64,000 nucleotides of DNA from an uncultured Gemmatimonadota bacterium (GTDB taxonomy: Bacteria > JAAXHH01), in the NCBI GenBank assembly GCA_951812955.1, contig OX638340.1:3232001-3296000 (forward strand). Reading direction: 5' to 3'. Both the position numbers and the translations under genes were made by a program. Under the pieces are notes generated by a model, which saw only the letters and a program-made list of their open reading frames with translations, searched no databases and was not told the DNA's origin. Positions 43,558 to 64,000 of this stretch are shown here, piece after piece. Each line of letters starts with the position of its first letter. Position 1 is the first letter of the stretch.

Positions 43558-44026
43558 AAAAGGACGTGTCCGCATGGTGGACGTGACGGAGAAACCGGTA
43601 ACGGAAAGGCGTGCGGTGGCCTACGGGGAAATAAGGGCCGCAACCGACACCATCCGGAAGATCTCCGCCGACGAAATGGGCAAGGGCGACGTGCTGACCA
43701 CCGCGAAGATCGCGGGCATCTCGGCGGCCAAGCGTACGGGCGACCTCATTCCCATGTGCCATCCCATCCCGCTGGACCACGTGGAGATCGACATTTCTCT
43801 GGACGAGGATGCGGCCAGGATCGGCATCCTTGCCACGGCGTTGTCATCGGGGAAGACCGGGGTGGAAATGGAAGCCCTGACGGCCGTCTCCGTGGCCGCC
43901 CTGACCATCTACGACATGTGCAAGGCCGTGGACCGGACCATGGAGATCGCTTCCATCCTGCTGGTGGAAAAGGAAGGCGGCCGTTCCGGAAGGTTTATTC
44001 GGCCGGGGTGGGAGGGGCCGGGGTAG
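43535..44026 (+). CDS. moaC: cyclic pyranopterin monophosphate synthase MoaC
   Basis: LSHLDEKGRVRMVDV...IPMCHPIPL...EMEALTAVSVAALTIYDM. Confidence 0.9.
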   Translation: MELSHLDEKGRVRMVDVTEKPVTERRAVAYGEIRAATDTIRKISADEMGKGDVLTTAKIAGISAAKRTGDLIPMCHPIPLDHVEIDISLDEDAARIGILATALSSGKTGVEMEALTAVSVAALTIYDMCKAVDRTMEIASILLVEKEGGRSGRFIRPGWEGPG

Positions 44027-44429
44027 TTTTCCTTATAGTGTTTTGAGACTGGCCCAGAACTATATTCGTAGCGCAGTAGTTGACTGTCTTGTTTACATAA
44101 TGAGCAAGGCACATACATGCCAATTTCGTCCTGATTGCAATAAGGATATATGATCTAAAATGTTTTCAGATAGCCCGTTCTAGGAGGTTTTCTAAACTAC
44201 CATTATCGAATTCTTAAAGATGGTTTCGCTTCCAACAGTTCGTGAGCGTATCGGATTCCAGACCTTCGACTCTTCCAACCCCCTTTAAAATCAGTCATGT
44301 ACTTCAGTTTCAAGAATTCCACTCTTTCGCCATACACATTTGGTTTTTCATAATCCCTCCAAAACATCCAACTTTCCAATTCCGACACGTCTTGATCCAG
44401 AAGATGATTTCTGGAAATATAGAGTTTGC

Positions 44430-44819
44430 CTACACCATCTTGTATCGAGCAGGTCCTTTCTTCCGAGCGGGAGGCAGTTTGGTTACAAAGCCCTGTTTGA
44501 CCAACCAGTTCATTGAAGCATGAACCAAGCTTCTTGACGATCTTTTGGGGTCGGCTTTTGTTTCCAACAGTCCGTTGGTTCGTAACATATGGAGTTCCTT
44601 GCAGAGATCGTCGGTATCCAATACCGAGCCGGGATGGGCAATAAACATCCGGCGGATACACTCTGTTGGGGTTTCTCTTTCAAAAAGTGTATTATCTGTT
44701 TCTGTGGACCGTGTGGCTTCATACTCCTTGTTCAATTCAAGGACGCCATTTAAACGATCTATCTCTTTCTCGAGCTCGGAAACTCTCTGTTTTACCCACG
44801 ATAAAAATGATTCATTCAC
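44430..44819 (-). CDS. hypothetical protein (N-terminal coiled coil), island-borne
   Basis: 129-aa ORF with AAAGGTGA RBS 6 nt upstream of the ATG and AT-rich codon usage; it overlaps another -strand ORF (44203..44661) in a different frame. Confidence 0.3.
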   Translation of the reverse strand: MNESFLSWVKQRVSELEKEIDRLNGVLELNKEYEATRSTETDNTLFERETPTECIRRMFIAHPGSVLDTDDLCKELHMLRTNGLLETKADPKRSSRSLVHASMNWLVKQGFVTKLPPARKKGPARYKMV

Positions 44820-44841
44820 CTTTCACCCCCGTGGAAAAGGA

Positions 44842-44870
44842 TTGACATAGATGACCAAACAAGATATCAT
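44842..44870 (+). promoter_or_regulatory. near-consensus sigma70 promoter TTGACA-N17-TATCAT
   Basis: Read directly; it points rightwards into the tRNA-like fragment and is divergent from the 44819 gene. Confidence 0.45.
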
Positions 44871-44893
44871 AATAGGCAGTTGGGAGTGAAACG

Positions 44894-44925
44894 AGGAAGC
44901 CCCGCCGGGAGTCGAACCCGGACCT
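44894..44925 (-). other. tRNA-derived 3' fragment (T-arm CCGGG-TTCGACT-CCCGG + acceptor 3' strand), no matching 5' half
   Basis: The plus strand shows ...gagtcgaacccgg..., the reverse complement of a canonical T-loop. The upstream sequence cannot pair as an acceptor or anticodon stem, so this looks like a partial att-site-like tRNA copy rather than a gene. Confidence 0.35.
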
Positions 44926-44996
44926 CACCCTTCGTGTGCAGTGGCTCTTTCCTTTAAGCTACGAGGCCCCTCGCTCTCAAACCTTCCAGCTACATC

Positions 44997-45039
44997 GGGT
45001 TGCCCTAGATCCTCCCAGATCAACGTACAGGGGCAACCC
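44997..45039. repeat. 9-bp perfect inverted repeat (gggttgccc...gggcaaccc) with 25-nt loop
   Basis: Read directly. Confidence 0.5.
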
Positions 45040-45672
45040 GACCTTCTAATATACATAACGACCATAAGATTGTCTGTCAACAGTTATTTCGTCGAGACAG
45101 TATAGAATTGCCTGTCCACACTGTTTACAGTAGACAACAGGCGTAATATCACAATAGCAAAGAAAAAGCGCAAGCAAAACAGTCAAGAGTGTTCACTGGG
45201 CAGAATCGGGGCAGAATCGTGAAAGATATCTGCCCGCACCGGCTACACCGGAACAGGTGGGAGTGTATCGTCCAAGAATAGGGCTTTGGAATAATGTCGT
45301 GAGACATGAGGACAAGAAAAATGGGTAAGTCGGTTAACCTACGAACGCTTGAGATTGATTACCTTAAGGCGGTAAATGACCGGGATCTAGCCGATCAGCG
45401 TGTAAGGGACCTAAAGCGTATCGCCCTACACCCCGTTCGTTGGCGAATTCATTCACAGCGAAATTGATGGCGTGGAATGGGAAACGAACTGGCAGCTACG
45501 GACACCCCGCTTGGCGGTAACTCGGAGGTCTATGCACTATGGTAGAAAAGTTGCCCGAGCAGTCTACAGAGGTGCTCACCAACTCTACCAACTAAGTAAA
45601 ACGGGCTTGGGCTGGACATGATTAGGAAGGCACATATCTCCTAAAGAACAGATCGATAGGCGATGTTTTTTC

Positions 45673-45700
45673 TTGACGTACTTTTAATCTTGCCTATATT
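45673..45700 (+). promoter_or_regulatory. argR promoter candidate TTGACG-N16-TATATT
   Basis: Good -35/-10 hexamers, 60 bp upstream of the argR ATG. Confidence 0.45.
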
Positions 45701-45705
45701 GCGTC

Positions 45706-45756
45706 CGTGCATGAATGGAATAATAATTCCTAATTATGGATAAATATTCATCGAAC
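45706..45756 (+). promoter_or_regulatory. ARG-box-like operator(s) (TGAAT…ATTC palindromes) overlapping argR 5' UTR
   Basis: tATGGATaaatATTCAt (45735..45752) matches the 18-bp ARG box consensus TNTGAATWWWWATTCANW with one mismatch. An upstream tgcATGAATggaataATaATTCC half-site-rich stretch is also present. Confidence 0.45.
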
Positions 45757-45761
45757 CGAGC

Positions 45762-51498: not shown

Positions 51499-52716
51499 GT
51501 GATTAAGCGCCAGAAAGTGAACGCGTCCGGACGGCTTCCCATGTCGAACCACGTGATCGAAGCGGCGGCACAGCTCAGGTGGTGGCTGCGGCTTCCCCCG
51601 ACCAACCTCATCGACCGGGGCGACCACGTCCGTTTCCGGTACGCCCTCTACCTGATGATCCACCAGGTCGCCACCGTGCTCTACGGCATAAACGGGCTGC
51701 CCGAAAGTATGTACTATCCCTCGCGGCTCGAGGGTGCACGAAACCGCCTGGACGGGTTGACCCGGGCGCCGGAACACGCGGGCTCAATCCTCTGGACACT
51801 GGCGACCGAACGCGATCCGGAGAAAGCGTGGGCGGCCGCGGCAGGACTGATGCGGGATACCCTGGCATTGCTGGAAGAATCAGCGGATGGGCGTGGTTCA
51901 ATGGGTTGGGAAGTCGAGGAAGGATCATTCAAGCCGGATCAGTCTCGGAATCCCGATGATCTATACGCACTGGCCGCCGAAATCGCTGAGCGGCTTCGCC
52001 TCCTCGAGAAAGCAAGCGCCGTGGCTCTGGGCGGATCCCTGGGGAGGGGTTACGCAGACCGCCAGTCGGATATCGATCTGCTCTTTTTCGGGCCGAGCAT
52101 TCCCCGTGAGGTCGATCGCCGCCGGCTGATCTCGGCCTGGCCGGACATTCAACATGGACCCCTGGTCGAACCGGCCTGCGACAGCGTGGTGCTCGATGGG
52201 GCGATGGTCCATATACGCTACTGGACCAGGCAGACCGTGGAAGACATGCTGGCGGCAATTCCCAGGCCACCGGTACAGCGGATCCTTGCAGAAGAGTTAC
52301 AGAAATGCCACGTCTTGATCGATCCGGACGGAAGGCTTCTCGCGTGGAAAGGCGTTTTGCATCACATTCCATCGGAATTGGTCACGGTTATTTACGAAGA
52401 AGCGCGGGGAAGGCTGCCCGCTTTTCGTAAGCAGTGGCAGAAGGCGCAGGAGTCCGATGACCGGATCCATCTCTACTGCCTGGCCAACCAGGCCGTGAAC
52501 GATTTCCTGATTGCGCTGTATATCCGGAATGGGCGGTTTCTGAGCACGCCCAGATGGATTCACCTTGATACGCACGCGTTCGATGTCGGTCTGCCGGAAC
52601 TGGAATGCAGATTGGCTTCGTTTGTGGACGGGATAGACGACCGGAAAGATACTGCGGCGAGATGGCGCGCGCTTGAGGTTTTGTGGGGGAAGTTGGCGAG
52701 TTTGCCGCCTTCATAG
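51499..52716 (+). CDS. nucleotidyltransferase-domain protein (Pol-beta-like NTase fold + helical C-domain)
   Basis: ALGGSLGRGYADRQSDIDLLFF is the minimal NTase GS…DxD motif. High-GC, host-like composition; this is the last host-composition gene before the AT-rich island. Confidence 0.5.
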   Translation: MIKRQKVNASGRLPMSNHVIEAAAQLRWWLRLPPTNLIDRGDHVRFRYALYLMIHQVATVLYGINGLPESMYYPSRLEGARNRLDGLTRAPEHAGSILWTLATERDPEKAWAAAAGLMRDTLALLEESADGRGSMGWEVEEGSFKPDQSRNPDDLYALAAEIAERLRLLEKASAVALGGSLGRGYADRQSDIDLLFFGPSIPREVDRRRLISAWPDIQHGPLVEPACDSVVLDGAMVHIRYWTRQTVEDMLAAIPRPPVQRILAEELQKCHVLIDPDGRLLAWKGVLHHIPSELVTVIYEEARGRLPAFRKQWQKAQESDDRIHLYCLANQAVNDFLIALYIRNGRFLSTPRWIHLDTHAFDVGLPELECRLASFVDGIDDRKDTAARWRALEVLWGKLASLPPS

Positions 52717-53627: not shown

Positions 53628-53941
53628 TTCTTCGGTCCTTGCGTTCTGCAACGTTGCCATTAGTGGCGGCATTGTTGGCTATAGAATGGACATCTACGTA
53701 GTACGGGGTTACGGCAGTCGAGGGCACGGCTCCGTTCTTCGGTCGGAAGCAAACGAGGAACCATCTAGTCGCTATTAAGGCTGAGGTGGCATTTTCAATG
53801 GCGAGCCGACACGCGGACTGGATGAAACAGGGTCGGCGAGATTATGAATACTACATCCGTGCGGAAGCGAAATGCGCACTGGCGAACGCCGCGCAGGTCA
53901 TCGACTTCTGTGAAGGTATTCTGGCTGGACCGCTCTCGACT

Positions 53942-54257
53942 GATGGAGCGTCTCAATCGAGCGGTCCGAACGCTGGGTGACCGCCACCCCGAAATCGAAT
54001 CGATCTATCTGTCCGGCTCGTTGGCGCGGGGAGACGCTGTACCCGGCAGCGACAGCGACGCGGACCTGCTGATCTTGGTGAGTCATGCCACCGAGCCGTT
54101 TCGGGATCGACCGGTCTGTTACCACACGACGGGTATGGGCGTGGACGTCGACGTGGTGGTTTACACGCGAGAGGAACTGGACGCGCTGCTGGAGACGGAC
54201 AACGAATTCGCACGGCGGGCATTGCGTGAGGGTGTCCGGTTGTTTCCGGTTCGCTGA
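53942..54257 (+). CDS. minimal nucleotidyltransferase (MNT/antitoxin-like NTase)
   Basis: MERLNRAVRTL...IYLSGSLARGDAVPGSDSDADLLILV is the classic MNT GSxxRG…DxD motif. ATG at 53942. Confidence 0.55.
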
Positions 54258-54425: not shown

Positions 54426-54829
54426 ATGATTAAGAATGAAAGGCAGTATTTGATTACGAAGGCTCAGGCTGCACGGTTCGTCCGCACTCTTGAAAGCCTG
54501 GATGGCGATGACGGTGTACATGATGTCATTCATAAAGCGCAACGGGATGCCGTACGAAGCCAGATCTCGGATATGAAAGCAGAGATTTCTGAGTACGAAT
54601 CGTTGAAGGCAGGGAACTCAAACCAGATCAACTTAAAACAGTCAACGAATTACCGGTGCTGCTAATCAAAGCGAGGATCGCTCAAGGCTTAAGCCAGAAA
54701 GATCTGACCGATCGGCACGGCTTAAAGGAACAACAAATACAGCGATATGAAGCCACGGACTATGTCTCCGCCGACTACCGCGACTCAGGGAGGTCGTCGG
54801 GGCCTTGGGAATCGAAGGAAAAACAATGA
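54426..54829 (+). pseudogene. HigA-like antitoxin (N-terminal domain + XRE helix-turn-helix) disrupted by a frameshift near 54620
   Basis: Frame A gives MIKNERQYLITKAQAARFVRTLESL…AEISEYESLK and stops at 54665. Frame +2 continues with PDQLKTVNELPVLLIKARIAQGLSQKDLTDRHGLKEQQIQRYEA (an XRE HTH) to the TGA at 54829. Confidence 0.5.
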
Positions 54830-54982
54830 ATTAGAATGAAACAGTCTCCGCATCTTAGTGGCCACATCAATCAATTTAACATGTTTCAACCGGTATACAT
54901 TCACACAAATATGCAAGCCATGTATCCAATGAAACAGTAGAGCCGTGGCTACCACAGCGAGCAGCAACTAGATTTGTTTAGG

Positions 54983-57900
54983 TTAGGCCATTAGATGCTC
55001 CAAAAGATTGTGGCTAACAGACCTGACTGTTCCCGTAGAAAGATCTAAAGCAACCTCCGCCATACCCACACCTTCGGATTGGGCGTTTATCTCTGAGCGC
55101 ATCCAAGCTCTTAGCCGTTCCGGCTGTTCATAGGTATCCAAAAGAAAGGAAGGGTAATTCAATTTTTCGAAGCTTGTGGGTTGGGTTTCTAGTCGGTTGA
55201 AAGCAAGCTCACGTACTTTCTTGTCACGTGTGAAACGGGCAGCTACGGCGCGCAAGCACGAAGGCAAAAACTCCCAGATATCACCACGGAGGTTCGACAT
55301 TCTCGTCTCAACTCCGATTACGAATTCATTCGGAGATGCGATTGCGGCTAACAATTGTATCTGAGCCGGAAGCAGGAGTTTAGGTTTTTCAGCTTGAACA
55401 CGGGTTCTCAGTTCTTTCCATGCTTGCGAGTCTGGCCAGCCTGCACTAAGGGCGATAACAAGCGCATTCGAATTGTCATCTAGAGTTACACAAGACTTTA
55501 GAACTTCGTAAGTTTTGGTATCGTTGGAAAATTGTTCAGCGAGAATTTCTGCAGCTACTATGCCAGGAGCAGTTTCGATCCAACTGCCTACATGGTGATA
55601 TTGAACTAAGGGGAGGCAAAGCTCGCGTAGTTGTTTCGTATTTCGCAATTGACTAGAATAAAGTTGTAGCATTGGTGCAGTCGTCATACTCTGACTAGCT
55701 TGTTCAACAATCTCGTCTGCTTTATCAGAATCTGTGGCGTGGGCAGCCATTTCCGTTAGGAATTCATCCGACATCCATCCTATTTGTTCCCAAATACTAT
55801 CACCGAACGCCTGAGTTATCCTATTCCAATGGCTGACCAAGTGTTCGGCTAATCGTAGGTTAGTGCTATGGACTACGCCAAAGCCTCGGTCATTTGTCTC
55901 ACATTCTGACCACACAGTTTTTACGATGTCAAGTCGGTCAAGCTCAAGAAGTACGGAGAAGGCCGCTTGGCGCCGGTCCCCGTAATCCGGTCCTATAACA
56001 AGCAACCCCTTTGTCAGTTTTTCAAGAAGTTCAGATGAGAGTTCATCTCGTTGAATGACTGATGCTGCGAAGCCGATTGCAGCTGCCGTTTTAACATTTA
56101 CATCTATATCTTCATCATAATCTGACAGAAGTTTATATGCGAAATCATCGTCTGGACCTAAGCGTGCAAGTCGATCGACGACAGTCAAACGGAGTTGTAC
56201 GGGGAGTGGACTACTTAGTTTGAGCAGTTCACAACGTATCTCATCACAATTTAGGTAGGCATTTGCAACGGTATTCAAGTCCCCTGCACGATTCCGTAAC
56301 TGATGAAAAGACAAGTCACGTACCTTGGGATGATTAGGAAAGTGTTTAATCAAGTCACTTACGCCCCAGTATGGTACGCCTGATGGTACCTCCCCCGAGT
56401 ATTTCTCTATAGCTGCTGGCACTACTTCCTCGTCATGCTCCTTTACTCCAAGATTGACCAATCCTATCAAAGCACCTCGGGCTGTTGAACCCGATTCATT
56501 GTTAAGAATCTCTAGTAAACGCCGCCGACATAGTACTTTATCGAGAAGAATCTCTGGCAGAAGATGTGCGGCCTTTATCGCAACATCACTATCAGCAAGA
56601 TTTAACAAAGCAGTAGCAACTTCTTTATCCTCCATACCCCATCCTAGTAACAACCACCGAGCTTGGTCCTTTGATATAACACCAGTATCCTCGTCCGGTT
56701 TAAGCAAAATACCCTTTGCCTGTTCTGATCGAGAGATGAGGCAAAGTTCGAAATCCCAAAATAACCTTCCGTTTTCTTTTTTAATTTTCCGCTCTAGCCA
56801 GTCGTCAACGGCTAGTCCTAATATCTGATGACCAGCGAATGCCTCAACGAGCGGTCCCCAGTTACCGCCAAGGCCAATTAAATGGCTAGGATAGTCTTCA
56901 GTCCGAAACAAACCTGCAATGGCCTCAGCAACCTCATCATCTTGCGGAAAACCTTCCAGCAGAATGATTCCGACGGCTCCAGAATCAACTATTACTTTAT
57001 CACCATTTCGTTCGATACTCCGTATCGCACTGTTTTTGACTCCAATGTCACCTGGCCAACCCTTGAGAAGAGCCCGAATTCGGTCGTCTTTCCAGCACCA
57101 TGATGCAAAGTGAAAATCTCGTGCAAGTTCTACTAATGTCTCGTAGTCATCCACATCCTGTTCTTTGCGTTTCACTCGATGAATTAGTGCGACACTTTGT
57201 AATGCAACATCGGCAGATGACCGCGCGTGCTTCAAGATTTCAGGAAGCCGATGATTAGTTTCCCAACCAAGGCAAAGCGCATGCAAGGAGCAGGCAAGCA
57301 GTCGCGGTTCAGAAGGAATCAATAGTAAGTCAAACAGCCATTCTGCAACAGAAGGATCACCTCCGTAAGCTCTTGCGAGTGATTCTGCTGCTATTCGTTG
57401 ATTCCAAGCTTCTTCATCAATAAAGCCACGCATTAATATCGCTTGGCCCTCGCTAGAAATACCCCATTTCGAGGCGGACTCATACATTCCGTGACGATAT
57501 TGATGTCGCAAGGGAAACCAGCGTTGAATACGGGACTCTACATGTGATCGCAGTATCTCGGATTCAAGTCCATCAAGTGCAAACTCAATAAGTCGTTCTC
57601 GAGTACCCGTGCGAACTCCGGTTTCTACAATCTCAAACGTCTCTTCCGCCAGTTTTCTGGCGACACTTGGCGAACAATGGAGATCACCAAAGGCTACTTC
57701 GGCAAGAAAGCTTTGCCGAGATAACTCCATTTCAGCCGCTAGTGGCATACTTTCGATAATCGCGACGAATTCATCCACCTCACCATACCGCGAGTTAAGA
57801 TGGCACAGGCACAAAAACACATCGTGCCACTGAGGATTCTTAAATCGTTTCTTCAATGCTTCCTTTTGCTGTTCAAATGGGAGATTAGATAGGTGTTTTG

Positions 57901-59872
57901 CAGCGAGGAATTCTTGTAAAGAGCGATGTAGAAAGCCGATCTCTATTGGTGATTTCTCGATGAGAACCCCAACTGCCTCGGTACCAATAGTGAGTAATTC
58001 TTCTGCTATACTATGTGCACCTTCCGGTTTTTTATGTAGGTGAGTTGAACAAAATCCCTGAAGCACATCCTTAGCAATGACTCTATCTAGAGCATCGCTC
58101 CCCGCTGAATCGTGGGTTTCCCAAGCCAACCTAGCCAATGCCCGTTCACGTGTTTCCTGTTGCAAATGTGAGTTGGTCCCGCGTGCGTGAACTGACTTTT
58201 CACGTCGCTTGGGCTGTTCGTCTAGCAGCAGACGTGCTAGTTCCTCGTATGCTTTGAATCTGCTGCGGGGAAGGCTCACTTTCTGAATGGCAAGAGCAAT
58301 TAGGCCATTAAGTAGTAAAGGCACCTTTGCCAGGCGGGATATCCGTAAATCACGGTGAAGGTCTTGTATGAATTGGGTGGCTTCGGATTTCGCCCTTTTG
58401 TGTCGCATGGCGATAGAGTCGCTATCTTCGCCAGGTACAGCAAGTGTGTAGGACCGATGCATGAACCATCGTTCAGCCAAGATTCCTTGTTGTTCATCTG
58501 TCAACCCAGAAAGCTGGGCTACACGCCACCTACTGCTTAGTCCACCGATCCGCGTATAACCTAGAGGACGACTGCTGACGATTGCTGGTACATTCCGTTC
58601 TCCCACGAATTGTTCGAGCAAACCAAGCGCCGTCCGAGCATCCGTGCCGTTACTCCACTCATCAAGGCCATCTACAAATAGCATTAATCTCGAATCTTCC
58701 AAAGCCTGCTGAACCAATGTAATTAGAGCTGTCTCAGCGGAAACTTTTTGAAGCCAAGCAGTGAGAACATTTGCTAACGAACACCCTGTTTCAGATTCGC
58801 TGACAAGTCGCGTCCACATGGCAAACGGAACCCAAACAGGTAAATATTGTCCCCAACGAAGAGCACTTGCCTCATAGCGCGGATCGGTACTAAGTAGATC
58901 AAGTAATACACAACGAAGCAAGGTACTCTTGCCGATACCTGGGTCTCCAAGTACAACCGACTGATCGGAGTCTGCAAGCCAGTCAATCGCTGAGCGGCGA
59001 ACTAGCGAGGGTCGAGGCAAAACTTGCGGTCTGCGGGATTGAGTAGAGTCTTCGTTTCCATCGGTGCGGAGTCGTCCTTTATTTTGATCTTCTATCGATT
59101 GATTAGTTGTTTCAATGTGGGCAGCTTGTTGTTCTTCCAGAATATCGGGAGGCACAAATCGATCGGCTAAACTGAGGGGCTGAAAGTCAGGTTTTATGGA
59201 ACCTGTTACGGACGGGATACCGGGATCGGAAATCTCGAAATGGTGAGTATAGCAACGCCGAAGAAGCTGTCGCAGTTGTACGACCTGACCAGGTTTTAAT
59301 CGGCGACTCGACAGTTTGGCAGCAGCTTCTTCGCCACAGAATTCCTGCACCCACTCGCGTCCAAAGAAGTCGTCTACTAAATCTGGATGGTTTTTTAGAT
59401 GTTCAGAAATCTGCGTGACACCAAGTGGTAGGAATTGGATGTTGCGTTCACGGAGGCGATCGCCTTGTGATTCTAATTCTATTGCAAGCTTTTTTTCTTC
59501 GGTCTTCACCGAAACTGCTAGTACAAACTTATCGGTTTTAGGTGCCCATGAGCCTTTTAAAAAACCAGTAACCGCAATGTCGATGAGATCCGAGCTGAAT
59601 TCCTTGTATCTTTTGCACTGCCAAACAGTATATCTGGATGATTCCAATGTGCGTACGTAGATATCTATACCTTCTTGATCCTGACCTGGAATCCCATACT
59701 CTTGACATCTTTCCACTTTTCCACCGCGCTGTGCGAGGCGAGCACAAAGTCTTTGAAAGAAGTTCCACGGTAAGAGGTTTAGTGGGAGTTCCTGTAATCT
59801 AGTTCTAATGGGATGAGAGACAAATGATTCAGATGGTACCCACACACTTGTGTTTTTTTTTGATTCTTCCAT
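54983..59872 (-). CDS. NACHT-domain STAND NTPase (bacterial NLR-like) with N-terminal Mrr-like PD-(D/E)xK restriction-endonuclease domain and long C-terminal alpha-helical repeat region
   Basis: ATG at 59872 with AAGGAT RBS (track TTG at 59875). The N-terminal domain matches the Mrr_cat pattern (FFQRLCARLAQ…GQDQEGIDIYV…TVWQCKRY…LIDIAV). Walker A VVLGDPGIGKSTLL, Walker B LMLFVDGLDEW and the NACHT-specific AIVSSRP motif are present. ~1,100 aa of helical repeats follow. AT-rich composition. Confidence 0.8.
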   Translation of the reverse strand: MEESKKNTSVWVPSESFVSHPIRTRLQELPLNLLPWNFFQRLCARLAQRGGKVERCQEYGIPGQDQEGIDIYVRTLESSRYTVWQCKRYKEFSSDLIDIAVTGFLKGSWAPKTDKFVLAVSVKTEEKKLAIELESQGDRLRERNIQFLPLGVTQISEHLKNHPDLVDDFFGREWVQEFCGEEAAAKLSSRRLKPGQVVQLRQLLRRCYTHHFEISDPGIPSVTGSIKPDFQPLSLADRFVPPDILEEQQAAHIETTNQSIEDQNKGRLRTDGNEDSTQSRRPQVLPRPSLVRRSAIDWLADSDQSVVLGDPGIGKSTLLRCVLLDLLSTDPRYEASALRWGQYLPVWVPFAMWTRLVSESETGCSLANVLTAWLQKVSAETALITLVQQALEDSRLMLFVDGLDEWSNGTDARTALGLLEQFVGERNVPAIVSSRPLGYTRIGGLSSRWRVAQLSGLTDEQQGILAERWFMHRSYTLAVPGEDSDSIAMRHKRAKSEATQFIQDLHRDLRISRLAKVPLLLNGLIALAIQKVSLPRSRFKAYEELARLLLDEQPKRREKSVHARGTNSHLQQETRERALARLAWETHDSAGSDALDRVIAKDVLQGFCSTHLHKKPEGAHSIAEELLTIGTEAVGVLIEKSPIEIGFLHRSLQEFLAAKHLSNLPFEQQKEALKKRFKNPQWHDVFLCLCHLNSRYGEVDEFVAIIESMPLAAEMELSRQSFLAEVAFGDLHCSPSVARKLAEETFEIVETGVRTGTRERLIEFALDGLESEILRSHVESRIQRWFPLRHQYRHGMYESASKWGISSEGQAILMRGFIDEEAWNQRIAAESLARAYGGDPSVAEWLFDLLLIPSEPRLLACSLHALCLGWETNHRLPEILKHARSSADVALQSVALIHRVKRKEQDVDDYETLVELARDFHFASWCWKDDRIRALLKGWPGDIGVKNSAIRSIERNGDKVIVDSGAVGIILLEGFPQDDEVAEAIAGLFRTEDYPSHLIGLGGNWGPLVEAFAGHQILGLAVDDWLERKIKKENGRLFWDFELCLISRSEQAKGILLKPDEDTGVISKDQARWLLLGWGMEDKEVATALLNLADSDVAIKAAHLLPEILLDKVLCRRRLLEILNNESGSTARGALIGLVNLGVKEHDEEVVPAAIEKYSGEVPSGVPYWGVSDLIKHFPNHPKVRDLSFHQLRNRAGDLNTVANAYLNCDEIRCELLKLSSPLPVQLRLTVVDRLARLGPDDDFAYKLLSDYDEDIDVNVKTAAAIGFAASVIQRDELSSELLEKLTKGLLVIGPDYGDRRQAAFSVLLELDRLDIVKTVWSECETNDRGFGVVHSTNLRLAEHLVSHWNRITQAFGDSIWEQIGWMSDEFLTEMAAHATDSDKADEIVEQASQSMTTAPMLQLYSSQLRNTKQLRELCLPLVQYHHVGSWIETAPGIVAAEILAEQFSNDTKTYEVLKSCVTLDDNSNALVIALSAGWPDSQAWKELRTRVQAEKPKLLLPAQIQLLAAIASPNEFVIGVETRMSNLRGDIWEFLPSCLRAVAARFTRDKKVRELAFNRLETQPTSFEKLNYPSFLLDTYEQPERLRAWMRSEINAQSEGVGMAEVALDLSTGTVRSVSHNLLEHLMA

Positions 59873-60376
59873 CAATGTAAATCCTTAAACCGATCGTCGA
59901 TGATGTTACCTCGATTTCGTGGACGATTTACCATTTGGGATTCAGGCTGTTTGCTTGAAGCTCCTTTCGTAGGTTGATGGTGAGAGATATCCGGGGGAAG
60001 AGTGCTTTCTCCAAGTATTGTAGAAGTCCTCGATGTATTCGAACAGTGCGAGTCTAGCCTCGGTCCCTGATTCGCTAGACCGACCGTATGTTGCAAGTGG
60101 AGAAACCTGAGAAAGTTATAGGTAGGGTTGCAAATACTATAATAAACATAGGCAATCACTACGTGGATTCGCCATCTGCACACAACCAAGGCACGCGTTC
60201 GAACGGGTTTTGGTTTCCAGTGATTAAACGATTCTTATATCGTCCTCGATATTCGAATTTCCGCAACAATATCAATTCGATATACCACTGACTTAGGCGT
60301 AAAGAATCCAATAGTGCATCCATCGAAATGTGACCATGCCTACGTTCAGGGTGAACGATATCATTACGAATCTTTG

Positions 60377-61444
60377 TTATCGCGGTCGGACCGTCCGTCC
60401 ATCCCTTCTTTTAGCAATCGCTTCCAAGTGTTTGCAGTGTGACGGAATTTTTGCTTCGATTTCTAATTCTTCGAGTGTCTTTTTTAACGATTTACCGAAA
60501 GAATACACCGTTTCCTGATTGATAATGTAGGACAGAGATTCTAGGGCAGCCTGAGTAAGAACGATTCCCACGTGAATGGCGCTGCCAGCACTATTCACAT
60601 ACCAATCTATAGCCCGACGAATGGCATCTTTCCATTCTTCCTTGGTATACAATTCCCAGAACCCACGAAAAGATCCGGAAAGACTGCCTCCCCCGTCATG
60701 TTTCGCGAGCCACGTGTGCCTGCTTTCTTGCCAGTGAGTTACGTACTTCGTTCCCCATAGTATGGACTGCTCCCCTCCACTTACATCAATTCCTTTTACA
60801 GATGTAAGACCACACGCCGTGCCACGAGCGAATGAGAAAAAGGTCCCTAATCCGTCTATTAAGGGTAATACGTCACCCACGGTAAACACTTTGTTGTTCA
60901 GAGAGTAAATTGCTCCAGTGTGGGTTATGGCATATCCTCCACTTTGTTTTAGGATCTTCTGATTCTCAAAAAAATTGCGATTTTCTTTAATCTCAATCCG
61001 CCAATGATCGACTTCTAGGATTGCGAACCCAAGTCGTCGATATACTCCATCTATTTCTATGTGTTTATCTTGTGCACCATAAAACGTTATGAAATTGAGT
61101 ATACCGAATCGCACAGATTTAAGTCGGACATCGGACCGAGCTACTGTACAAGGACTCTGAACAGGGCCTAAGGAACCTTTGAATCCAATTACTGAATCCT
61201 TATTGAGACTACATGACTTCAGCTTTACTCGAATCCTTCCGCCGCTCTTCAAGGAAATAAAAAAAGGTTCATACATAAATCTCTGTCGCATAAACAATGG
61301 ATATTCATCGGAATCGATAGAAAACTGTAATCTGGGCGACAGTCGAAGAACCGCGCGAACCTTACAAGGCGTGGATAGACATTGGTCTTGTATGTGAGTG
61401 ATACTTGTATCGTCAAGAACAACTGGTTCATTCGGTTTGCACAT
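60377..61444 (-). CDS. hypothetical 355-aa protein, co-directional between the methyltransferase and NACHT genes (possible nuclease/effector)
   Basis: ATG at 61444, 44 bp downstream of the MTase stop. AT-rich; no recognisable family. A weak D…E-x-K-like pattern (IEIDGVY…LEVDHWRIEIKE) is present. Confidence 0.45.
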   Translation of the reverse strand: MCKPNEPVVLDDTSITHIQDQCLSTPCKVRAVLRLSPRLQFSIDSDEYPLFMRQRFMYEPFFISLKSGGRIRVKLKSCSLNKDSVIGFKGSLGPVQSPCTVARSDVRLKSVRFGILNFITFYGAQDKHIEIDGVYRRLGFAILEVDHWRIEIKENRNFFENQKILKQSGGYAITHTGAIYSLNNKVFTVGDVLPLIDGLGTFFSFARGTACGLTSVKGIDVSGGEQSILWGTKYVTHWQESRHTWLAKHDGGGSLSGSFRGFWELYTKEEWKDAIRRAIDWYVNSAGSAIHVGIVLTQAALESLSYIINQETVYSFGKSLKKTLEELEIEAKIPSHCKHLEAIAKRRDGRTVRPR

Positions 61445-61487: not shown

Positions 61488-63977
61488 CTACTCCATCGCC
61501 ATAATGATTCTCGCAATCCGCCTAGCGGTTTCCGTAAAGTACTTAATCTCTTGGGGATTGAGCGCACGCCCGATCACATTGAACTCGCGGTAGGATAGCC
61601 ATTTCTTAAGTACCTGATAGCCGCCAAGCTTGTAGTTCCAGATTTTGGTGGGTACGTTATGCCAGAAGGCGCGGTCGTTCAAATACACGTCCACAGTAGT
61701 TGCACCTAGTGCGGAAATCGCCGTACCTAGGACGGCGCGTTCGTCAGCCGTGTATTTGCGTTCGACGATGCGGCCTTTGCCCGGCATTACCGTGTCGCCC
61801 CGTCCGTAGTGACCCCACCTCGCAGTCACTGCGAAATCATCATCGGTCATATTGCTACCGTGGCTAGTTGTAGGCACGGCAAGCGAAGCGATCTCAGGTG
61901 GTATCGCACCCTGAGTAACGCCCGGTACCGGGGTGTCGGGATCAAATAGACAGGCTAGTTCACGACCCCGGTCGGCCGATTCAGCGAATAACTCAGCGGC
62001 ATTTTTGGTATCCCCATTGGGCCAGCCCGGTAGTGGTATACGCGGCCAGTCCATTGCAAGCGCCCCGGCATTAGCTTCACGATATGTCGGATTGTGGAGG
62101 ATGGTAAGGATGTTGTGGAATAAGTCCTCAGGACTCGCTCGTATACGATGGAGATAGCGTTTGCCAGCCTCAGATAAGTTTGGTAGGTAATGTAATACGT
62201 TGTCACCAGCCCCAAGGACGTCGTTGTTAAGATAGATGGGGAACCATATCGCAGTACGTTCGATTAAATGCATAGCACCAAAGTGTCGGGTAACAATGGT
62301 CTGTGCCTCCGTTACGTCCTTACGAAGATGCTGAGCTGCACACAGCCACAGGTTTTCCTCGAACACCTGTCGCTTGTAGTCGGCACGCTTGTCGTTAAGG
62401 AGTTTAGTCTCTGCTTCCCAGTAAAGCCATCGGATATCGAAGGGGCGGTACGCGAAGCGAATGAACCCGCCTTCGTTCGGTCCGCCGCGTGCGAGTAGTG
62501 TTTCGCGCACAGAGTGAGCGTCAAAATGCCTCGCGGTTTTCATGATAATAGGATATCGCTGGGCAATCTCGTTGTGGCTCAAATTCACGTCGAAATAATC
62601 GGAGACGCGGGCCATTAGTCGATCAAGGTCGATATCGACAAGAAACGAGTCCCGGTTGGTCTTTGCTCCAGGAAATGAGATCGGATAAATATCGGGTAAC
62701 GTAGGCCAGTTGAACCAGCCCTCACTCACCGCCGTACGCACGAACGGCAGGCCAAGCGGCAAAGATGGCTCGATGCGGTCATAAAGTACGTTTGGTTCCG
62801 CATGCGCCGTCGCCATCAGTTCCTTGCGCTTTGTACGTCCCCACAGATGGCGAAATCCGATCTCCACTGCGGGGGTATGATTGTACTTACGTACCAGAGT
62901 TGCAATGGCCGTACCCACCTGAATGCCAACCGGATTGTCCGGCGTCGAAAAGATACTTGGGTCTGGCGAGCCATCGGGAGCGACCTTTCCGGTCTTATAT
63001 TTGTCGCCATTTAAGCAGTCGATCCGAATCGAGTCGAAAACCTTGAGGAAGCGCTCCCTCATACCAGCGAACGACAGCCCGTCGAGCCAGGAATAATTGG
63101 AAATGAAACAGATTACCCCCTGACCGGTTCGCCCAGCAATCCGTCTTTCAGCCATACGGAAGAATCGGATGTATAGATCGATCAGTCCCTTGCTTTTTTC
63201 CATCCGTACTTTGCTTGTCTTACGATAGGCTTCGAAGAGTTCGCGTTCTTCATCAATCGTTACACCGGCAAAGGCATTATAGGGTGGATTACCCAAGATC
63301 ACCAAAACCGGAGTCTCCTGCTTCACTCTCTCGGCCCGGTCACGCTCTTCCTCCAATTCAGGGAACGGCAGCACATTCTTAGTTCGCGGCTCCCATCCAG
63401 TCAGAGCGTTTGTTAGGAAGACTTGGGCTCGTTCCATCCCGTCATCGGAAAACGTCGCATCAAGTGCCTGCATGGTCAACCCGATCTGAAGATGCGATAC
63501 GACAAAAGGCGCGGGCATGATCTCGAAGCCAAACACCCGTTCTAATGCCGCCTGCTTTACCTGCGAACCGACAAGCGCACCGACTCCTTTGTTTTCAAGA
63601 TTGGAAGCAATATTGCGTAACACTTCTGCCAGATAGGTTCCGGTACCGCAGCATGGGTCGAGCACATATACGTTTTCCGCAGCTAGTCCATCTGGAATCC
63701 CCAGATCGTCTTTGAGCGCTTTGTCCACTCGTGTAACCATATAGCGCACTACTTCGATTGGTGTGTACCATACGCCTAGTTGCTTACGCAACCCAGGGTC
63801 GAATGCCTGTAGAAAGGGCTCGTAGAAATAGGTTACCGCTTCGCCTTCATTGAATCGGGTGAAGAAGGTAGTGCGGTCCACACGGTTAAGAGCAGCGGAT
63901 GTCCAATCCAACACTTCCACTAGGCCTAGAGGCTCAAGGCGAGCAGGCTGTGAGAGTTGCTGGAACAGAGATTGCAT
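61488..63977 (-). CDS. gamma-class N6-adenine DNA methyltransferase, PglX/MmeI/Eco57I-like (no N-terminal nuclease domain)
   Basis: YFYEPFLQAFDPGLRKQLGVWYTP (motif X), VLDPCCGTGTYL (motif I, FxGxG) and ILGNPPYN (motif IV, NPPY) in gamma order, with a ~550-aa C-terminal target-recognition region. The start is 23 bp from the window end, so any upstream partner genes are not visible. Confidence 0.8.
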   Translation of the reverse strand: MQSLFQQLSQPARLEPLGLVEVLDWTSAALNRVDRTTFFTRFNEGEAVTYFYEPFLQAFDPGLRKQLGVWYTPIEVVRYMVTRVDKALKDDLGIPDGLAAENVYVLDPCCGTGTYLAEVLRNIASNLENKGVGALVGSQVKQAALERVFGFEIMPAPFVVSHLQIGLTMQALDATFSDDGMERAQVFLTNALTGWEPRTKNVLPFPELEEERDRAERVKQETPVLVILGNPPYNAFAGVTIDEERELFEAYRKTSKVRMEKSKGLIDLYIRFFRMAERRIAGRTGQGVICFISNYSWLDGLSFAGMRERFLKVFDSIRIDCLNGDKYKTGKVAPDGSPDPSIFSTPDNPVGIQVGTAIATLVRKYNHTPAVEIGFRHLWGRTKRKELMATAHAEPNVLYDRIEPSLPLGLPFVRTAVSEGWFNWPTLPDIYPISFPGAKTNRDSFLVDIDLDRLMARVSDYFDVNLSHNEIAQRYPIIMKTARHFDAHSVRETLLARGGPNEGGFIRFAYRPFDIRWLYWEAETKLLNDKRADYKRQVFEENLWLCAAQHLRKDVTEAQTIVTRHFGAMHLIERTAIWFPIYLNNDVLGAGDNVLHYLPNLSEAGKRYLHRIRASPEDLFHNILTILHNPTYREANAGALAMDWPRIPLPGWPNGDTKNAAELFAESADRGRELACLFDPDTPVPGVTQGAIPPEIASLAVPTTSHGSNMTDDDFAVTARWGHYGRGDTVMPGKGRIVERKYTADERAVLGTAISALGATTVDVYLNDRAFWHNVPTKIWNYKLGGYQVLKKWLSYREFNVIGRALNPQEIKYFTETARRIARIIMAME

Positions 63978-64000
63978 GATAGGAGCACGTAAATGCCACA

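Follow-up and report, generated by a model that had tools for sequence, protein, structure and literature searches.

A 64,000-nt stretch of the genome of an uncultured Gemmatimonadota bacterium (assembly GCA_951812955.1, contig OX638340.1, positions 3,232,001 to 3,296,000; referred to here as the window) encodes on its minus strand a complete protein of 1,629 amino acids (aa), in which an N-terminal Mrr-like nuclease domain, a central NACHT NTPase module and a C-terminal HEAT-type α-solenoid follow one another in a single polypeptide (positions 54983..59872). With a probability of roughly 0.7, this protein is a stand-alone anti-phage sensor-nuclease of the bNACHT/Avs type, related to the nucleotide-binding leucine-rich repeat (NLR) immune receptors of animals, that was acquired horizontally within a defence island. 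The analysis established the three domains, the conservation of the catalytic motifs, the fixed architecture of the protein family, the independence of the gene from any partner gene and its foreign, defence-rich genomic context.

More than 900 proteins match the window protein over its whole length, most of them measuring 1,600-1,690 aa, and the observation is therefore well beyond chance. These full-length matches originate from Poribacteria, Gemmatimonadota, Thermoanaerobaculia, cyanobacteria, Thiosymbion and ANME-1 archaea, and the window protein is aligned over 100% of its own length with >100 homologues. The family maintains a fixed architecture, with members of about 1,630-1,760 aa. Conservation was evaluated in an alignment of 104 full-length homologues reaching down to ~31% identity, in which residues D70, Q85, K87, K315, D401, D404, E405, R435, P436 and H649 were found to be invariant or nearly so; judged from this alignment, the catalytic sites of the family look as if they are under purifying selection. 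The list of open reading frames (ORFs) and their translation place the stop codon of the window gene at 54983-54985 and its ATG at 59872. The ORF frame extends over 54983..59875 on the minus strand and a TTG is located one codon upstream of this ATG; the ATG is supported as the start codon by the coinciding N-termini of homologues (MEESKK.. / MAESKK.. / MDEAKK..). All 1,629 codons form an unbroken frame, and all family-invariant residues are retained. The motifs on which the first-pass annotation had based its domain assignments were all located in the protein, with the Mrr-type GIDIY at aa 68 and QCKRY at aa 85, and the NACHT signatures GDPGIGKST at aa 309, LMLFVDGLDE (hhhhDGLDE) at aa 396 and SSRP at aa 433.

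The Mrr-like PD-(D/E)xK nuclease core spans aa 30-125 (59498..59785, minus strand). When searched on its own, the window protein misses the curated Pfam thresholds both for Mrr_cat (PF04471; E 0.0029, 18.2 bits against a gathering score of 21) and for Mrr_cat_2 (E 0.0066, 16.8 bits against a cutoff of 22), and family-level and structural evidence is therefore needed for this assignment. Among 24 diverse relatives scanned, Mrr_cat was matched in 15 (best E 1.9e-7) and Mrr_cat_2 in 12, and the separately encoded N-terminal ORF of a Deinococcus plasmid copy carries the NCBI annotation “restriction endonuclease.” An AlphaFold2 model of aa 1-235, computed from a 26-sequence alignment with a predicted local distance difference test (pLDDT) score of 83, displays the element order α(36-49), β(53-59), β(69-75), β(81-87), α(94-106) and β(113-120), which corresponds to the αβββαβ core of PD-(D/E)xK enzymes. 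In this model, the candidate catalytic residue D70 (59663-59665) is situated on the second strand (69-75), while Q85 (59618-59620), followed by a cysteine and K87 (59612-59614), is situated on the third (81-87). D70 and Q85 are invariant in all 104 full-length sequences and K87 in 103 of them. Metal binding in QxK active sites of the Mrr type may involve an acidic residue of the first helix. Position 40 in helix α1 (59753-59755) is a glutamine in the window protein, and the alignment shows glutamate at this position in 55 of 104 sequences and glutamine in 47, including the clade of the window protein. A sequence search of the PDB with either the full-length protein or the N-terminal profile returned nothing significant. 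Taken together, the family profiles, the conserved triad and the predicted fold confirm, as far as a model can, that the N-terminal domain is an Mrr-like PD-(D/E)xK nuclease, for which DNA cleavage is predicted.

The nuclease core is followed by a conserved helical extension (aa 126-235; 59168..59497, minus strand) with the motif HPDLVDDFFGREWV..FCGEEAA. According to the AlphaFold2 model, it contains helices within aa 127-212 and a strand at aa 146-150; its column entropy is low (1.66) and residues S156, L159, F169, W174 and G180 are invariant. One possible role of this extension is to link the nuclease functionally to the NTPase. At its end (aa 215-235), the model already has low confidence. 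The linker that connects it to the NACHT module (aa 236-295; 58988..59167, minus strand) varies more than any other segment of the protein, with an entropy of 2.50 and only 21% identity between distant members and the window protein.

The NACHT module comprises aa 296-680 (57833..58987, minus strand). Its assignment is based on the Pfam profile NACHT (PF05729), which matches aa 304-472 with E 4.6e-10 and 40 bits against a gathering score of 26.7. Other P-loop families yielded weaker matches that all remained below their cutoffs (AAA_16, E 1.7e-5; NPHP3_N, E 8.9e-5; nSTAND1, E 1e-3; and nSTAND3), and NACHT was the best match not only in the window protein but also in 24 of the 24 relatives scanned. 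The module carries a Walker A motif at G309-S316 with the lysine K315 at 58928-58930, a Walker B motif with D401, D404 and E405 at 58658-58672, an [ST]SRP motif with R435 at 58568-58570 and a FLHRSLQEFLAA motif with H649 at 57926-57928. Complete invariance (104/104) was found for G312, G314, K315, D401, G402, D404, E405, R435 and P436, and the Walker A residue G309 is invariant or nearly so. H649 is likewise invariant in 104/104 sequences and is located at the distance after the nucleotide-binding domain that is expected for the nucleotide-contacting winged-helix histidine, which makes it a candidate equivalent of NLRC4 H443.

The remaining part of the protein (aa 681-1629; 54986..57832, minus strand) is a HEAT-type α-solenoid that presumably serves as the sensor. 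No Pfam match was obtained within aa 600-1629 of the window protein; among the relatives, HEAT_2 was matched in 13 of 24. An AlphaFold2 model of aa 680-1629 (pLDDT 88.1, predicted template modelling score 0.88) shows a solenoid of ~57 short helices that terminates in a conserved β-hairpin and helix (aa 1607-1629). Foldseek matched this model to transportin, CAND1, importin-β, SF3B1 and mTOR at probability 1.0, with the low TM-scores that flexible solenoids give, and the top 50 matches were mostly classical HEAT proteins, with no solved Avs sensor among them. A profile built from the sensor alone identified at least 641 representatives at E<=1e-30 in a library clustered at 50% identity. In nearly all of these, the sensor starts at approximately residue 680, indicating that this sensor is tied to one architecture. 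Column entropy is higher in the sensor (1.8-2.3) than in the effector and the NTPase (1.4-1.5), and this faster divergence of the sensor represents a receptor-like conservation pattern. The nuclease-NACHT-repeat layout that the first-pass annotation had compared with bNACHT and Avs proteins is thereby confirmed, including the long C-terminal helical repeat and the priority of NACHT over other P-loop families. Its claim of an N-terminal Mrr domain stands at the level of the family profiles, the triad and the predicted fold, but not as a Pfam match of the window protein alone. Of the refuting conditions named in that annotation, those on the fold of the N-terminal domain and on the fit of the central region to NACHT were checked, and both checks came out in its favor. 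An anti-phage function is suggested by this architecture together with the genomic context.

Relatives were found in 146 stretches, counting one genome per species, from many phyla as well as from the archaeon Methanothrix. The cultured hosts among them include Pseudomonas, Dickeya, Aeromonas, Bradyrhizobium and Xanthobacter, and the sensor was also found in Latescibacterota. Accessions belonging to the family include WP_063863497.1, WP_015210458.1, WP_089725096.1, MDE0400586.1 and WUU58555.1. A large actinobacterial branch with proteins of ~1,730 aa comprises Streptomyces, Nocardia, Rhodococcus and Mycobacteroides and includes Pseudonocardiaceae. Between a Streptomyces member and the window protein, the Mrr and NACHT domains are 35% identical and the C-terminus is 20% identical, with an hhalign E-value of 2e-30 over 861 columns. 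A swap of the sensor in a Streptomyces plasmid homologue, for which tblastn had reached only aa 8-703, was rejected on account of this homologous C-terminus. Full-length copies are also located on plasmids of Deinococcus, Pantoea and Enterobacter hormaechei. The latter, on an IncHI2 plasmid (orthologue WP_063863497.1), is situated a few kb from genes of a cyclic-oligonucleotide-based anti-phage signalling system (CBASS) and TIR genes, with insertion sequence (IS) elements between them. Two loci with interrupted or divided genes were observed in addition. In a Latescibacterota genome (L030, 11458-13783), a 2.3-kb insertion with two opposite-strand ORFs interrupts the family gene at approximately codon 470-477. 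On plasmid pDAETH-3 of Deinococcus aetherius (L086, 5929-10796), a 229-aa “restriction endonuclease” and a 1,334-aa NACHT protein are encoded 173 nt apart; this is either an effector that is split by nature or a gene that has been disrupted.

The base composition of the gene also points to a foreign origin. Its guanine-cytosine (GC) content is 46.8% and its GC content at third codon positions (GC3) is 0.39, as opposed to 61.2% GC for window positions 1-52700 and a GC3 of 0.83 and 0.87 for the adjoining host genes argH and argD. The first-pass annotation had described a gene of about 47% GC in a 65% GC genome; the AT-rich gene was confirmed, whereas the local background amounts to 61.2% and not 65%. 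The closest relative, at locus L083, encodes a protein that is 78% identical to the window protein. In every genome of the close clade (L001, L003, L005 and L006), the gene stays at 47-49% GC while its flanks range from 53 to 61%; the low GC content travels with the NACHT gene and there is no drift toward the composition of the host. The proposed horizontal acquisition is thus supported by the GC3 contrast, by the stable composition across the close clade and by the patchy spread over phyla, archaea and plasmids.

The way in which the protein might function can be outlined by analogy with Avs3/4, Avs7 and bNACHT25, which serve as models for the trigger, the oligomerization, the activation of the nuclease and the phage phenotype. 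At rest, the HEAT solenoid and the NACHT module would lock the protein in an inactive monomeric state with bound nucleotide. The 950-residue HEAT sensor would be engaged by a trigger from the phage or by an infection-induced perturbation of the host, after which the NACHT module would exchange or bind NTP and oligomerize. The oligomer would gather the N-terminal Mrr-like PD-(D/E)xK domains into an active nuclease that would degrade DNA and halt phage replication; the infected cell would probably die in the process (abortive infection). In all Avs families tested to date, the cell death that otherwise follows when the cognate phage protein is co-expressed was abolished by mutation or deletion of the effector domain (PMC13581612).

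Among the experimentally studied systems, bNACHT25 and bNACHT32 share the same layout. These proteins, in which a restriction endonuclease (REase) domain is combined with NACHT and a helical NCH1 region (NACHT clade 6), defend E. coli against phage, and D48 of the nuclease is required (PMC12169576). As in the window protein, a single polypeptide starts with a PD-(D/E)xK or Mrr-like DNase, has NACHT in the middle and ends in a helical region, and the nuclease aspartate (D48 in bNACHT25, D70 in the window protein) is located in a G-x-D-[FI] strand that is followed by an x-C-K strand. However, bNACHT25 consists of 752 aa with a short NCH1 (575-747) in place of the 950-aa HEAT solenoid, belongs to clade 6 whereas the window protein probably belongs to clade 2, and senses infection via the host chaperone DnaJ. 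Avs4 (PDB 8dgf) also combines an Mrr-like nuclease with a STAND NTPase, followed by tetratricopeptide repeats (TPR); no relationship to it was found at the sequence level. The NTPase of the window protein is a bona fide NACHT and its sensor is HEAT-like. A link to the MADS system was rejected, since the “mad8” matches of relatives do not extend beyond the Walker A segment (profile positions 10-57) and the “mad2” match of a neighboring gene is a generic methyltransferase match.

The closest known proteins appear to be those listed in NACHT clade 2, in which Mrr_cat+NACHT and REase+NACHT proteins with a broad taxonomic spread were recorded (Kibby et al., 2023, Table S1). Examples are WP_125728006.1 from Kibdelosporangium, WP_157567192.1 from Hymenobacter, PKN68616.1, KAF0246040.1 and WP_044834066.1. 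Their Mrr domain is located at ~17-132 and their NACHT module at ~214/289-703/737, in the same order and at nearly identical coordinates as the domains of the window protein (30-125 and 296-680), and it is therefore very probable that the family or its nearest kin was already catalogued in clade 2. This correspondence is drawn from architecture and domain coordinates: no accession of the clade-2 entries or of the tested proteins was found among the 13 homologue clusters whose accessions were looked up, and Kibdelosporangium did not appear among the top 120 matches. The Mrr_cat+NACHT entries of this clade are catalogued only, and the clade-2 proteins that were tested (bNACHT20, 27, 30, and 37) carry other effectors. 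The earlier suggestion of a possibly uncharacterised variant therefore holds in one respect, as no experimental study of any family member was found in the literature, but not in the other, as the Mrr_cat+NACHT architecture had already been listed.

In the window, the gene is located in an island of 48.7% GC that extends from a left edge at ~52.7 kb to the window end. This edge follows the host genes argR-argC-argB-argD-argH, a GNAT gene and a gene for a 405-aa nucleotidyltransferase at the GC transition (51499-52716, plus strand; NTP_transf_2, weak DUF4037). Downstream of the NACHT gene, the island contains a gene for an MNT-type nucleotidyltransferase (53844-54257, plus strand; NTP_transf_2, PADLOC PDC-S09), which is kept at this location in L083, and a split helix-turn-helix gene with overlapping ORFs of 79 and 57 aa (HTH_3; 54426-54829, plus strand) that looks like a frameshifted antitoxin-like regulator. 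A consensus scan identified a terminator-like hairpin 25 nt past the stop codon (54942..54958, minus strand), whose location suits a terminator, although such sites are not more frequent in this region than expected from shuffled sequences. A second low-GC patch (44000-45760, 45.9% GC) lies between moaC and argR and contains a 152-aa ORF without Pfam match and a tRNA-like gene (44895-44968, minus strand), for which ARAGORN reports a 4-base anticodon (cacg) and Rfam a tRNA match of 37.7 bits; this patch may represent a small element that has integrated here or a degenerate tRNA.

Two genes precede the NACHT gene on the same strand. The more distant one encodes a type IIG restriction-modification enzyme (61488..64000; Pfam Type_ISP_C, N6_Mtase and Eco57I, PADLOC REase_MTase_IIG E 1.3e-82). 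Its frame is open to 63998, the ORF listing starts at an internal ATG (63977), and ~280 N-terminal codons are located beyond the window end. The complete orthologue in L006 has 1,122 aa and is 70% identical, with an alignment that starts at its aa 278, corresponding to window position 63998. A truncated methyltransferase without nuclease was excluded on these grounds, as the frame leaves the window and the orthologues are complete type IIG enzymes. The nearer gene (60163..61444) is YopA-like, with YopA_M/YopA_C domains and a distant relation to ApeA. It is present as an ORF of 355 aa (60377-61444), and the last ~80 codons are found in 60163-60410 in another frame, as seen by tblastn. Homologues of ~428 aa exhibit PF26308 and PF27216, and some of them PF18862. 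Relative to L083, the gene shows a 1-nt deletion near 60411 (GCTAAA-AGAAGG against GCTAAACAGAAAGG), which could be the mark of a real pseudogene or an assembly error beside an A-run. Identity to the orthologue is 93% in the C-terminal piece and 63% in the rest of the protein. An N-terminal truncation of the 355-aa neighbor was excluded in favor of this frameshift near codon 350. The spacer that separates the YopA-like gene from the NACHT start contains the 3' remnant of an IS3-type transposase (59945..60115, minus strand), recognized by its rve_2 tail in frame 1, which ends with ARLALFEYIEDFYNTWRKHSSPGYLSPSTYERSFKQTA and a stop codon (Pfam rve_2, E 1.3e-6, 28.9 bits against 22). As the spacer is collinear with L083, this IS scar appears to be older than the split of the two loci. 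A 105-aa ORF overlapping the remnant (59872-60189) is unlikely to be a real gene.

The surroundings of the gene differ between loci, even within the close clade. The type IIG gene is located upstream on the same strand in the window, L083, L001/L002 and L006, and its stop codon overlaps the NACHT start in L006. The gene between the two is YopA-like, encodes a DUF4238 protein or is missing, depending on the locus. Other, equally close loci carry different upstream genes, which are a TIR-like gene, MoxR and DUF4159 in L003/L004 and an ABC transporter in L005. The TIR-like gene directly upstream in L003 (9196-9942), and likewise in L004, encodes a 248-aa protein with a match to a PADLOC TIR “Effector” (E 1.1e-8) and a weak Pfam match to Nuc_deoxyrib_tr, and may be another defence effector. 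In L001 (7665-7886) and L002 (5068-5289), a 73-aa ORF directly upstream is homologous to the C-terminal end of the type IIG enzyme (46% identity to residues 1009-1102 in L006), with the DUF4238 gene and another type IIG gene, which is split, located further upstream; this junction looks like the footprint of a cassette replacement. For a comparison across the family, ORFs of >=70 aa from 82 loci and the window were clustered all-against-all, and no neighboring gene family occurred in more than 5 of the 83 loci. No ORF of >=30 aa within 1 kb was conserved across loci either. The absence of a conserved neighbor leads to the conclusion that the gene is a stand-alone gene. In a qualitative scan, strong matches among 115 near neighbors across phyla included type IIG, DrmMI, HmaC, Cas1, HerA and PDC candidates. 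The two neighbors in the window are independent genes that travel together in the defence island and are linked only in the closest clade, not parts of an obligate system. The idea that they mark an acquired variant is therefore upheld for the foreign, defence-rich island, but not in the sense of partners in a conserved system.

Several observations weigh against the reading as an anti-phage protein of the bNACHT/Avs type. Besides the fact that no experiment on a family member was found, these include the absence of any member from 50,697 phage genomes and from IMG/VR contigs, as well as the failure of defence models to recognize the protein. The window protein matched none of the PADLOC models (v2, including Avs1-5), and the marginal matches of its relatives are limited to the nuclease head of Avs2. 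No NCBIfam defence model recognizes the protein. The sole curated antiphage family with any NCBIfam match is antiphage_EruA (31.5 bits against a cutoff of 1000), also known as Avs10, Erebus/Hypnos or bNACHT64, which is a NACHT-type STAND protein as well; this match covers only the NACHT core (aa 388-561), and the window protein is not a member. An hhalign comparison of the family profile with the first 400 aa of bNACHT25 and bNACHT27 aligned the P-loop region only, with probabilities of 20% and 38%, respectively. Furthermore, recognizable defence genes were found near only a minority of loci across phyla, in a qualitative scan with no background control. The sensor is unusually constant in length, unlike what a fast arms race would predict, and the glutamine at α1 position 40 could mean that the nuclease chemistry of the window clade differs.

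Some of these points would also be in agreement with a role as a non-immune STAND NTPase, that is, a regulated nuclease or signaling scaffold in host DNA metabolism, in the stress response or in a form of programmed cell death that has nothing to do with phage. In the STAND phylogeny, defence clades and clades with other roles are intermingled (PMC13581612), length and sensor are conserved to an unusual degree across phyla and domains of life, most loci are without obvious defence neighbors, and no phage-borne copies were found. This role is nevertheless considered very unlikely, as the combination of a nuclease effector, a STAND module and a large repeat sensor is a hallmark of defence-associated clades. 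The foreign composition, the IS scars, the plasmid carriage and the patchy distribution of the gene argue in the same direction, and breakage by an insertion, as seen in the Latescibacterota copy, is typical of dispensable accessory genes. A further alternative, also regarded as highly improbable, is that this particular genome carries the gene as a relic, inactive or silent, in a decaying island. The frameshifted YopA-like gene, the transposase remnant and the split helix-turn-helix ORF would fit such decay, as would the Q40 residue and the spacer upstream of the gene, in which no σ70-like promoter was detected. That scan was confined to the σ70 consensus and is uninformative for organisms with other promoter types, the single-base deletion of the neighbor could stem from the assembly, and Q40 is common to 47 of 104 sequences that otherwise look under strong purifying selection. 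The unbroken frame with every invariant residue in place also argues against a relic.

An involvement of the NACHT protein in a multi-gene system with the type IIG enzyme, and possibly with the YopA-like gene, is unlikely as well. Mrr-family nucleases are classically modification-dependent, and a methyltransferase could, for example, mark self DNA that the Mrr-type nuclease would spare or target. Besides the recurrent upstream position of the type IIG gene, such a system is favored by the similar divergence of both proteins between loci (65-70% identity for the methyltransferase, 67-68% for the NACHT protein) and by the collinearity of the type IIG, YopA-like and NACHT genes between the window and L083, with 79.7% nucleotide identity over 9.1 kb. 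However, the linkage is confined to the closest clade and is replaced by other upstream genes even there, ~75 more distant loci show no conserved neighbor, and the gene in the middle is not constant. In the window, it is frameshifted while the NACHT gene is intact. In addition, the L006 type IIG orthologue matches the PADLOC REase-MTase profile from position 3, and this complete profile implies that the enzyme can work on its own. The evidence as a whole thus favors a stand-alone sensor-nuclease with an anti-phage function.

A more far-reaching proposal, put forward here tentatively and with little confidence, is that the Mrr-NACHT-HEAT family constitutes a distinct pattern-recognition receptor. 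It is based on the 950-residue sensor of fixed length, which is conserved in lineages as distant as Latescibacterota and Streptomyces on the bacterial side and ANME-1 and Methanothrix on the archaeal side. The target of such a sensor might lie beyond the tailed-phage proteins of the known Avs repertoire and be, for example, a conserved perturbation of the host cell or a component common to bacterial and archaeal mobile elements, and in the clade of the window protein, the receptor may also be genetically coupled to the type IIG enzyme as a layered unit.

A recent survey of STAND proteins distinguished 589 clades and 684 sensor clusters and introduced the names Avs7-24 (Lee et al., 2026; PMC13581612). 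The present finding leaves the concept of how such receptors work unchanged. As none of the defence-finder models that were run recognizes the family, inventories built on such models may undercount these receptors. The copy on the Enterobacter plasmid represents a tractable entry for trigger screens like those that assigned Avs7-21. If active, the family would add a large group of proteins from bacteria and archaea, with at least 641 clusters at 50% identity, to the bacterial NLR-like receptors, in hosts that include Streptomyces, Nocardia, Mycobacteroides, Pseudomonas and Dickeya as well as the IncHI2 plasmid of Enterobacter.

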